The notes beneath the pieces were generated by a model that did no database searches, was not told the origin of the DNA, and worked only from the letters and a program-made list of their open reading frames with translations. Shown here piece after piece: positions 9,290 through 12,153 of a stretch of 28,852 bases of DNA (positions within the stretch are counted from its first letter, which is position 1; each line of letters opens with the position of its first letter). Location: NCBI GenBank assembly GCA_046318155.1, contig JBKCUU010000111.1:1-28852 (forward strand). The letters run 5' to 3'. The position numbers and the translations under genes are program-made. This DNA comes from Bdellovibrio sp. GTDB lineage: Bacteria; Bdellovibrionota; Bdellovibrionia; Bdellovibrionales; Bdellovibrionaceae.

Positions 9290-10837
9290 TTATGCGTTAG
9301 TCAATAATACCTTTAAGAGCTCGGGACCAAAACGCTCGAGCTTGACCTCACCTAAGCCGTACACGCCGACGAGCTCGGTCATGCCTTGCGGATTTTTCTG
9401 CGCAATTTGACGGATTGTTTTATCCCCAAAGATCACAAAGGCAGGAACATCGAGTTCGAGCGCTTTGGCTTTACGCCAATCGCGCAAAAGCTCAAAGCGC
9501 ATCTGCGCTTCATCGCTCCATGGTTCATCAAAGACTTCAGGGGTCCGCTTCTTTTTGCGCAATCGGGCGGCATTGGCCGTGATCGAAACAGCCTTAGCTG
9601 GACGCTGCACCTTACGCGACGAGGTCGGTGCACAGTTGTCACAATGCCCACAGTGGCTGATCCGCTGAGAGTCTTGATAATAAGTTAGAATCTCGCCATG
9701 ACGGCACTCACCGCCGCCCTCGGCATAGGCCACCAAAGCGTTCAGCGTGTTCCAGCGCGATCGTTTTATCTCGGCCGGCGCTTCAGAGCTGGTGATAAAA
9801 AAAGACTGCAGACCTTTGTCCTTGGCCGAATACAACATCACGCACGTCGAAGGATCACCATCGCGCCCAGCGCGGCCCATCTCTTGATAAAGAGCATCGA
9901 TGTTGGCCGGCATGTTAAAATGCACAACCAAGCGCACGTTGGGATGATCAATCCCCATCCCAAACGCGTTCGTGGCGACCAAAATGCGATCGGTGCCGTT
10001 CTCGTAATCGCTCTGCACGCGGCTTCGCTCGGCGGAGGCCAGGCCCGCGTGGTAGCGATTCACACCTTCAAAACTTTTGCTGAGTTCTTCGGCGACAGCT
10101 TCGGTCACTTTGCGAGTTCCGCAATAAATGATGATGCGTCCCTCGGGCGTTTGCCTGATGGCCTGCTTTAGAACTTGAAATTTCAGGTCTTCGTCTTCAC
10201 AAGCTTCAACTTGAAAATACAAGTTGGGCCGGTAAAACCCGTGAACGTGCCGAGCAGGCTTTTGCAAAGCGAGGTTGCGAGAGATATCAGCCAGTACCAG
10301 CGGCGTTGCCGACGCGGTCAGCGCCAGCACTGGCACATCGGGCCGCAACGTCTTTAAAGATTTGAGCTGTGAGTACTCTTGGCGAAAATCATGTCCCCAC
10401 TGCGAAACGCAATGAGCCTCGTCGACGGCAAACAGAGCGATCTTGCGGCCCATGATCCAGCGGTGAAAGCCCTCTTTTTGTGTGCGCTCCGGCGACATGT
10501 ACAAAACAAAGGGACCGCCCGCTGACATTTGCGAAAAAATCTGACGTTTCTCATCTTCGGTTTGGCCCGAGTGCAGGCAGCCCGCGGGAATCCCGCGCCG
10601 CTTAAGACCCGCCACCTGATCTTTCATGAGCGAGATCAAGGGCGACACCACGATCACAAGCTCATTTTTCAACACAGCGGGCAGTTGATAACACAAAGAT
10701 TTGCCGCCGCCCGTGGGCAAAACGGCGAGCACGTCTTGATTTTTTAAAACCGACTGCAGAATCTCGAACTGACCTTTGCGAAAGGCCGAGAGCCCAAACT
10801 TGTCTTTTAAAATTTGTTCGACAGAGGGGCTGGTCAT
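9290..10837 (-). CDS. recQ: RecQ-family ATP-dependent DNA helicase with HRDC domain
   Basis: [54 protein letters not shown], Zn motif CRH...CGHCDNC, and HRDC (LRDWRK...[11 protein letters not shown]). Start at ATG 10837. Confidence 0.95.
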
Positions 10838-10978
10838 CGATTCTACTCTTGTTGGTAAAAGCCTGAGGATCCTTTGGCGGACCTGCAAATGAGGAGTCTG
10901 CCAAAAAAAGCCCCAAACTGGAAATAGAGAACTCAATATGACGATGCGCGGACCCACTCTTTCGCATGGGCTAACGTA

Positions 10979-11467
10979 TCATTTGAGATTTTTTAAAAAC
11001 GCAAAGTCCCGATCCATCACGGTTTTGCGACCATCACTGCGGGCGTTGTCGATCGCGCGGTCACAGACCGTTCGCAGATGCTCGGACAAAGCCTCCATGA
11101 CCGACGCGGAGGTGTTCATATCACCGAGGGCTTGAATAAAATCTTTGACTCGAGACGCGATCACCAGCACCTCTTGCGTTGGGGCCGGCCCACGGCTGCT
11201 CTTGACCGGCGAAGCTAAACTCGCCGGCACATCGGATCGAACAACAAGGCGATTTTTTTGAGGTGCGGTCATTTCGACAGCGCCAGCGTCGCGGTGACGA
11301 GCACCCGGCAAATGCGTTTCAAAACATTGCATATTGCAAAACACGTATCCGGTTCTTTGACCATTGCAGGTCGAAACGCTGCAGATGAAATATTTCTGAC
11401 TAAAGTTGATTGTCTTTTTACAAGTGCTGCACTTTTTCCAGCCGTCTGCGTTCGGTGTTTGCTCCAT
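10979..11467 (-). CDS. Bacterial histone-fold protein with an N-terminal ZZ-type zinc finger (Bd3044-like)
   Basis: C-x2-C-x12-C-x4-C-x9-C-x3-C-x3-H-x5-H, a Pro/Ser linker, then EVLVIASRVKDFI...MNTSASVMEALS...AIDNARSDGRKTVMDRDF, closely resembling Bdellovibrio histone Bd0055 as recalled. Confidence 0.88.
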   Translation of the reverse strand: MEQTPNADGWKKCSTCKKTINFSQKYFICSVSTCNGQRTGYVFCNMQCFETHLPGARHRDAGAVEMTAPQKNRLVVRSDVPASLASPVKSSRGPAPTQEVLVIASRVKDFIQALGDMNTSASVMEALSEHLRTVCDRAIDNARSDGRKTVMDRDFAFLKNLK

Positions 11468-11500
11468 TGATCCCTCAATTTAAAAAATTGCCTTTGGCAA

Positions 11501-11980
11501 TCATGTCACTGATAAAATTCGGTACTCGCGCATTTGTTCATTGATTTCAAGCTCGGCCGTCTCGCCCGCTTTAAGCCCCAAGAGAGCCTCTCCCAGCGTA
11601 GAATGTGGGGTGATGACCTTTACATTTTTTCCAGCAAAATTCAAGTTCACGCCGCCTCCTTTAGGCATCACAAAAACCAAGCTGTGCTTGCCTTTCGACT
11701 CCACTTCAACCAAGGCCGTTGAAGAGATCCGATCTGTTTTAGAAAAGTTTTTAAACTCCGTGGTTTTGAACATTGAGATAACTTCATCGATCTCACCCGC
11801 ACGTTTGGCTTGAGCGCCGGCAAGGTAAGAGGCCTCGAGACCAAAAGTATCGTATTCGTTTTCTGGCTTACTTTCTTCGTGCGTGGCCGCTTCGTGCGTC
11901 GCTCGGGCCGCGTTGATCAGAAGAACCAACTCTTCTTCAAGACTTGAAATGATCGCGGCGACCAGTGCTCTTTTGTCCAA
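11501..11980 (-). CDS. GreA/GreB-family elongation factor-like protein (non-canonical)
   Basis: Coiled-coil N-terminus with ENEYDTFGLEASYLA and C-terminal ITPHSTLGEALLGLKAGE. Probable TTG start at 11980. Confidence 0.85.
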   Translation of the reverse strand: MDKRALVAAIISSLEEELVLLINAARATHEAATHEESKPENEYDTFGLEASYLAGAQAKRAGEIDEVISMFKTTEFKNFSKTDRISSTALVEVESKGKHSLVFVMPKGGGVNLNFAGKNVKVITPHSTLGEALLGLKAGETAELEINEQMREYRILSVT

Positions 11981-12153
11981 AACGAACCTCTTTGATTTCC
12001 TAACTTTGATATCCAAGCCTAACTGGCATTTGAAAGAAAAACAAAGGCCTGCCTTCAAACTCCGACAGGGAACCGTCAGGAGATCAAAAAGGGCTCGCCT
12101 TTTAGGAATGTTAAAGCTATGTAAAGCCCGAAATCCAGCGAAAGGATTCTCCC

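Follow-up and report, generated by a model that had tools for sequence, protein, structure and literature searches.

A Bdellovibrio zinc-finger histone and the frequent occurrence of its ZZ-like finger without a histone fold

A gene of Bdellovibrio sp. (assembly GCA_046318155.1, 95% complete) almost certainly encodes a ZZ histone, an added member of a known family of thousands of sequences that was described in 2024 (Schwab et al., PMC11390915). What is new here are the counts of stand-alone fingers, that is, genes that encode the zinc finger of this family and no histone fold; because such genes are frequent, the finger, not the fold, appears to be the part whose job needs to be found. We tentatively favor the view that the ZZ histone is a minor histone variant in which the fold would serve to hold an autonomous, basic finger on DNA; the finger itself would most likely bind nucleic acid there. 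The gene lies in a window of 28,852 nucleotides, which is the whole stretch of DNA that was analyzed (contig JBKCUU010000111.1; Table 1).

The zinc-ligand pattern of the open reading frame (ORF) is not a chance occurrence, given that, out of 36,739 segments in a six-frame translation of the genome, just one (the ORF itself) matched a loose C6H2 pattern, as did none of 20,000 shuffles of the protein, that 2,082 homologs were found among 2,114 candidates (667 representatives at 50% identity), and that the pN/pS values point to selection. In the comparison with the related locus L002, these values were 0.11/0.64 for the finger, 0.10/0.60 for the histone fold and 0.40/0.53 for the linker; the finger and the fold are under purifying selection, the linker much less so. 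The named loci nearest to the gene are from Bdellovibrionales, and proteins with 61% identity are encoded in the B. bacteriovorus strains Bd5 (L009) and YOA24 (L004). The AlphaFold2 model of the full protein has a mean pLDDT of 76 and a pTM of 0.39. The Pfam search of the protein yielded only a sub-threshold histone match (E 0.01), so the expectation of the initial annotation that standard pipelines would label the protein hypothetical is plausible, although some homologs carry the JGI label 'histone H3/H4'.

Table 1. Features of the ZZ-histone gene and its immediate neighbors in the window
Feature	Position	Strand	Evidence or comment
RecQ-family helicase with HRDC domain, downstream neighbor	9290..10957	-	orthologue in 1/80 related loci (L002)
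ZZ-histone gene (P0001)	10979..11467	-	162 aa, ATG start; homologs, purifying selection in both domains
Bacterial-dimer (HBb/Bd0055-type) histone fold, residues 99-155	11003..11173	-	L1 NTS, L2 RKT, RD clamp; profile, Foldseek, VIA
Flexible linker, residues 70-98	11174..11260	-	pLDDT <50 at 75-93; length 20-49 in homologs; pN 0.40
Conserved linker motif, Arg and hydrophobic residues, R73-L-V-V-R77	11237..11251	-	116/120 linkers vs shuffles
ZZ-like two-zinc finger, residues 10-69	11261..11440	-	ligand invariance, pLDDT 84.9 when modeled alone, fold matches, net charge +5, pocket positions
Shine-Dalgarno-like GAGGGA	11471..11476	-	upstream of the ZZ-histone ATG; GAGG-type ribosome-binding site 5 nt from start
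GreA/GreB-like ORF, upstream neighbor	11501..12058	-	common to 1/80 related loci (L002)

The C-terminal domain is a histone fold, as had been claimed from the MNTS and RKTVMxRD motifs, which are present at residues 117-120 and, as RKTVMDRD, at 147-154. A profile built from 120 homologs retrieved HBb/Bd0055 of B. bacteriovorus as the best match (8cmp, E 2.2e-17), followed by HLp and HTkC; in Foldseek, the fold matched HBb (8fvx) with a probability of 1.00 and an rmsd of 1.6 A over 56 columns with 48% identity (1.6-1.7 A across the HBb structures), and the VIA-align Z score for the same comparison was 6.8. Of the ten DNA-contact residues of HBb that are named by Hu et al. (PMC11317129), seven (S9, K12, N22, S24, K52, T53 and R57) are identical in the ZZ histone (S105, K108, N118, S120, K148, T149 and R153; offset 96), and K10 is conservatively replaced by Arg106, so that eight of the ten are kept or conservatively changed; T8 and K16 correspond to Ala104 and Gln112, respectively. 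The kept states hold in 114-120 of the 120 homologs; among the L1-L2 contacts, N118 is found in 117, T119, T149 and R153 in all 120, and K148 in 114, with Arg in the other 6. The position of HBb K13 is occupied by Asp, and by Asp or Glu in 120/120 homologs; the A56 position is acidic in 119/120, and Asp is found there in plain singlet histones as well. The fold carries a net charge of -2, compared to +2 for the same span of the genome's own Bd0055 ortholog.

Thus, the ZZ-histone fold shares with the solved structures of HBb/Bd0055 (8CMP, 8FVX, 9EZZ, 9F0E) the short fold and the intact RD clamp and differs from them in the loss of T8, K13 and K16 and in its negative charge, whereas HBb has neither a finger nor a linker. 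With 98 extra residues and Asp and Gln in the K13 and K16 positions, the protein is not an HBb-type single fold with helix-1 lysines; its features, namely, the eight-ligand finger, an alpha3 fold with RKTxxxD and, on weak scores, a HERC2/p300/ZZZ3-like finger, are those of ZZ histones. From this pattern of residues, we infer that the paired L1-L2 grip on DNA is kept and the helix-1 grip is weakened; the conserved residues also suggest that the fold dimerizes and binds DNA.

The ZZ histones of Schwab et al. (alpha3 subfamily, PMC11390915) are described as having the same N-terminal finger with C4 and C2H2 ligand sets, a bacterial-dimer-like C-terminal fold and a non-conserved pocket. The two-zinc Cys6-His2 pattern reported in the initial annotation stands: C13, C16, C29, C34, C44, C48, H52 and H58 are all present and are invariant in 120/120 close homologs, and all eight ligands are kept in 154/156 diverse fingers, a set that includes the query, 47 fold-less fingers and 108 distant representatives. 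Assigned by spacing from the legend of Schwab et al., one zinc site would be formed by C13, C16, C44 and C48 and the other by C29, C34, H52 and H58. In the ZZ histone D0LYE7 (PMC11390915), seven of the eight ligands have the same spacing as here, but the last C4 ligand is placed by the figure legend, the only source for this comparison, two residues past the previous Cys, in contrast to four in this finger (C44, C48) and in 154/156 fingers; the difference may be genuine or may stem from an error of numbering. In two loci of family f19 (L141 and L149), the loop between the fourth and fifth Cys is shortened, and the otherwise conserved segment with Arg38 is missing.

Pfam, NCBIfam and PDB sequence searches assigned no family to the finger. 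In Foldseek, all of the first ten matches were ZZ domains or ZZ-bearing chains (p62, HERC2 and KCMF1 among them), none significant (E 0.12-0.38, TM about 0.5). The top VIA-align match was a chain of the RSC remodeler (Z 5.1, rmsd 2.6, 49 aligned residues). The matched stretch of this chain is presumably its ZZ domain. The next matches were Nbr1 (4.8), CYLD (4.4), NosL (4.4), ZZZ3 (4.3), a COL2 B-box (4.2) and TRASH (3.4), and an Ada2-module chain was matched as well. Treble-clef fingers of the B-box, TRASH/zf-FCS and NosL types thus score within 1 Z of ZZ domains or just below them, with B-boxes (4.2-4.4) level with ZZ; no B-box was found among the best 25 of the 37 Pfam families listed, and the FCxxxC motif gave weak scores to zf-FLZ in 21/120 and to zf-FCS in 4/120 family members, all of them sub-threshold. 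Among ESM Atlas structure matches, the finger's own family came first, followed by clusters bearing zf-FCS, RING and ZZ_ADA2 (TM 0.51-0.57); feature matches led to unnamed clusters of 69-78 aa (0.83-0.84), which we treat as a lead only. Eukaryotic ZZ domains (p62, HERC2, Nbr1, ZZZ3, p300) are therefore the best, though weak, structural neighbors and share the C6H2 order, but they have no sequence match to the finger in Pfam or PDB, and the finger differs from them in its longer loop between ligands 4 and 5, its basic surface and the lack of the pocket. The ZZ assignment proposed previously is accordingly sustained as ZZ-like: ZZ domains head both structure searches, but on weak scores and with the B-box within 1 Z. 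Judging from the model, 'ZZ-like cross-brace finger' is a fair label.

The finger is present in 166 of the 301 genomes of the phylum, nearly always in one copy, and in 35 of the 75 other genomes of the order. It is fused to a histone fold in 116 of the 166 genomes and stands alone in 46 (L082-L090, L092-L098, L104-L140), with one case split by a frameshift and three cut by a contig end. This classification drew on 105 full-length matches, 60 loci with a partial or doubtful match and two cases located by their identifiers (G267 among those); a finger was considered stand-alone when neither the ORF itself nor any reading frame of the flanking ~2-3 kb (shorter at contig ends) contained a fold. 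Stand-alone fingers are either short (65-75 aa) or long (105-125 aa), and in none of the 46 loci does a histone gene adjoin that of the finger. In genus g42, five fragmented genomes (91-98% complete) encode a stand-alone finger, and no histone was found in them with three queries. The genomic place of the stand-alone gene is conserved in family f15, where it precedes a gene for a membrane (sodium-translocating) pyrophosphatase in 11 loci (L083-L089, L134, L137-L139) and directly follows a GalE-like gene in 6, which argues against decay; in family f28, it directly precedes a branched-chain aminotransferase gene in 5 loci. Where a lone stand-alone case sits within a group of fused forms (G222), it could have arisen by recent truncation. 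In the split case (L133 in G044, positions 2525-2987), the finger and the fold are encoded in overlapping ORFs in different frames, which may reflect a frameshift, a sequencing error or fission in progress. In the finger tree, which was built from 63 columns and 85 rows and retains many open forks, 7 changes between the fused and solo states are needed, at least 3 of which are forced by well-supported branches.

The architecture varies further among 150 distant representatives: 91 combine the finger with a fold, 12 with two folds (P0122, P0123, P0127-P0132, P0140, P0145, P0158, P0168), 13 consist of two folds, 26 of the finger only (many of these being fragments), 7 of the fold only, and there is 1 other. 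Within the 12 finger-doublet proteins, the L2 motif is kept in the first fold of all 12 and L1 in that of 4, and the second fold has retained L1 in 9 proteins and L2 in 7, as if one DNA grip per pseudodimer were favored. No longer fusions of the finger were found among proteins of 285-2000 aa, a weak piece of evidence. Section 8, the available passages and the searchable supplements of PMC11390915 contain no mention of stand-alone fingers or of a finger with a double fold. Our literature search, which drew mainly on openly available papers and on the searchable parts of that article, returned neither an experimental study of any ZZ histone nor a paper that deals with stand-alone fingers, in line with the earlier description of zinc-finger histones as a defined but functionally uncharacterized family; in the accessible part of PMC12701072, the subfamily is only listed.

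Two observations concern other histone genes of these lineages. Double-fold histones of the bacterial-dimer type that lack the finger are encoded in two genomes of family f19 (L151 in G173 and L152 in G033). In family f22 (L100, L111, L112, L120), the fused genes contain an internal Met codon seven residues before the fold with a purine-rich stretch ahead of it, and the start of a plain histone in this family (L147) coincides with the equivalent Met, so that a single gene may yield a long as well as a short histone; in the genomes of f22 with the internal Met, the fused gene is the only match to a Bd0055-type query.

Apart from the ZZ histone, the genome encodes one further histone, a 64-aa Bd0055 ortholog in a separate gene on contig C112, and a third type of query detected no others. 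In its own locus (L081, G000:C112:10000-16500), the Bd0055 ortholog lies between a metallophosphoesterase-like ORF and a secretin-like fragment, with a MurD-like gene further upstream of the former, these labels being assigned from the translations alone. By a hand count, 29 of the 30 other genomes of the order with the fused type encode a close Bd0055 ortholog; in several genomes, for example, G219, G047 and G074, the fused protein is the sole match to a Bd0055-type query, and according to Schwab et al., only 50% of the proteomes with a ZZ histone contain a second histone (PMC11390915). According to Hocher et al. (PMC10627809), strain HD100 has two histone genes, and Bd3044 is the longer, less conserved one and is unable to replace Bd0055. 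The ZZ histone of our genome would by inference be the Bd3044 ortholog, the link of the name running through the two histone genes of HD100 and not through a sequence comparison. HBb/Bd0055 is described as abundant and probably essential (PMC10627809, PMC11390915) and the ZZ histone of B. bacteriovorus as weakly expressed (PMC11390915, section 8); bd0055 and bd3044 peak together late in growth according to a 2025 preprint (10.1101/2025.09.24.678257).

In the scenario that we favor, the ZZ histone would be a minor variant beside the major Bd0055/HBb-type histone, and a dispensable one given the presence of the finger in only part of the order and of the phylum. Its C-terminal fold would pair in a handshake dimer, either with a second copy of itself or, in most cases, with the abundant Bd0055-type histone. 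This dimer would grip the DNA backbone without sequence preference via the conserved L1-L2 sites. The grip would be weaker than that of HBb because T8, K13 and K16 are replaced by Ala, Asp and Gln and the domain is net acidic. The formation of heterodimers cannot be general, considering that a second histone is found in half of the proteomes and that the fused protein is sometimes the only match to a Bd0055-type query. The finger would bind two zinc ions in a cross-brace and act as an autonomous unit, given that loss of the fold leaves it in place, with the fold serving as an optional tether on the chromosome. The finger is basic (median net charge +5; 0 or less in 2/156) and lacks the acidic pocket of eukaryotic ZZ domains (see below), which leads us to propose that it binds nucleic acid; it would thereby provide the doped dimer with a second, flexibly linked contact to DNA or RNA, which is the least certain step of this scenario. 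Such a contact could bridge nucleic acid segments or bias where the variant sits, with the Arg-hydrophobic motif of the linker helping. The existence of 12 proteins, among the 150 distant representatives, with one finger on a double fold implies that one finger per dimer can suffice. A complex prediction for residues 7-82 and a dimer of the protein's own fold with the Bd0055 ortholog, with two zinc ions included, gave a score of 0.00 and a mark of 0.32 and was accorded no evidential weight.

Positive charge alone does not establish nucleic acid binding, and an acidic protein would be just as plausible a partner of a basic finger. We consider it rather unlikely, though next in rank to the nucleic acid scenario, that the finger and the Arg-hydrophobic motif form a protein adaptor that recruits a non-histone protein, such as a component of transcription, condensin or a protease, via an acidic surface of this partner while the fold provides the tether to DNA. 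The linker of the ZZ histone is rich in Pro, Ser and Ala and, as originally annotated, flexible (Table 1). The motif within it is found in 116/120 fused linkers, compared to a mean of 8.7 in shuffles, and a related hydrophobic-Arg-Arg motif ends the disordered tail in 28/28 long stand-alone fingers, compared to 0.27 in shuffles, a pattern that resembles a docking motif. Five non-ligand surface residues of the finger (W10, V31, S32, R38 and P54) are invariant in close homologs, the finger persists where no histone is found, and a precedent is available in Nbr1 ZZ1, which also engages surfaces beyond its pocket (10.1101/2021.02.07.430097). Against the adaptor, no candidate partner emerges, the gene neighborhoods vary between families, 19/47 fold-less fingers have tails of less than 40 aa, most of which end before the motif, and the search of proteins of 285-2000 aa yielded no fusion that would name a partner, although this last point carries little weight.

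It appears improbable that the six Cys and two His residues make the finger a switch that senses oxidation or zinc status, such that its unfolding would alter the DNA binding or the turnover of the attached histone. The low expression fits a regulator (PMC11390915) and the eight ligands are invariant, but a structural zinc site would equally have invariant ligands, and the surroundings of the gene show no recurrent redox or metal genes.

The residues of the finger that are equivalent to the pocket residues D129, N132, D147 and D149 of p62 were located by cysteine spacing, not by superposition, from the presumed positions of the p62 cysteines. With this mapping, the equivalents are Ser14, Lys17, Gly40 and Val42; Asp or Glu is found at the four positions in 0, 1, 5 and 0 of the 156 fingers, respectively, and one of the positions is Lys or Arg in 150/156, so that on this criterion the finger falls outside the eukaryotic N-terminus readers. 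Eukaryotic ZZ domains grip the N-terminus of the ligand in an acidic pocket with three conserved residues, mostly Asp (10.1101/2021.02.07.430097), and binding by p62 requires each of the three aspartates of its pocket, D129, D147 and D149 (PMC6197226). The initial annotation had proposed a chromatin protein with its own reader module, whose finger would recognize N-terminal peptides or the tails of histones. A tail reader built into a bacterial histone is an appealing idea, and it draws on the ZZ domains at the top of both fold searches and on the shared C6H2 ligand order, but it is highly improbable in view of the missing acidic residues, the basic charge of the finger, the tail-less Bd0055 orthologs and the five genomes in which the finger occurs and no histone was found. 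Schwab et al. likewise note the lack of conservation of the pocket in ZZ histones and regard the binding of tails as unlikely (PMC11390915). Very little probability attaches, too, to a fold that makes no contact with DNA and, as a dominant-negative or chaperone-like partner, titrates the major histone from it. This would suit the net acidic fold and the acidic residues in the K13 (120/120) and A56 (119/120) positions, but the near-invariant L1-L2 contacts would then be hard to explain, and Asp is found in the A56 position of plain singlet histones as well.

The nucleic acid scenario can be extended to a broader claim, of which we are doubtful, namely that predatory bacteria possess a wider, as yet undescribed system, of which the ZZ histone represents the fused state. 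In this system, a small basic, pocket-less, nucleic acid-binding ZZ-fold protein would work without a histone and would repeatedly have become attached to, or detached from, a single tethering fold or a pair of them. If so, the histone fusion would exemplify, in bacteria, a histone variant that brings an effector domain to chromatin. Should the finger bind nucleic acid or a chromatin enzyme, this would be, to our knowledge, the first functional bacterial histone variant with an effector domain, and the result would bear on the origin of the eukaryotic ZZ fold. These possibilities are directly testable with the stand-alone version of 65-70 residues and in B. bacteriovorus, which carries the fused version, can be cultured and is amenable to genetics.

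The gene neighborhood of the ZZ histone is not conserved and is silent on function: excepting antisense ORFs of the gene itself, no neighbor family is found in more than 9/81 loci. A functional tie to the RecQ or the GreA-like neighbor was rejected, given that these are common only to L002 among the 80 loci; the other helicase matches, present in 7 loci, are DEAD-box-type proteins with 20-29% identity. An opposite-strand ORF detected in 39 loci was taken to be an antisense shadow of the ZZ-histone gene. The scan for promoters and terminators gave counts not above those in shuffles (1 vs 2.0 and 4 vs 5.2). A terminator-like hairpin with a T run lies at 11486-11502 on the minus strand, between the GreA-like gene and the ribosome-binding site of the ZZ histone, and such sites are no more common than in shuffles. 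Elsewhere in the window, the segment 13215-17415 on the forward strand, which is shared with L002, contains an ORF of 923 aa that has no clear match in Pfam and, after it, two ORFs with prepilin N-methylation motifs, and is possibly a pilus or type II secretion-like cluster.
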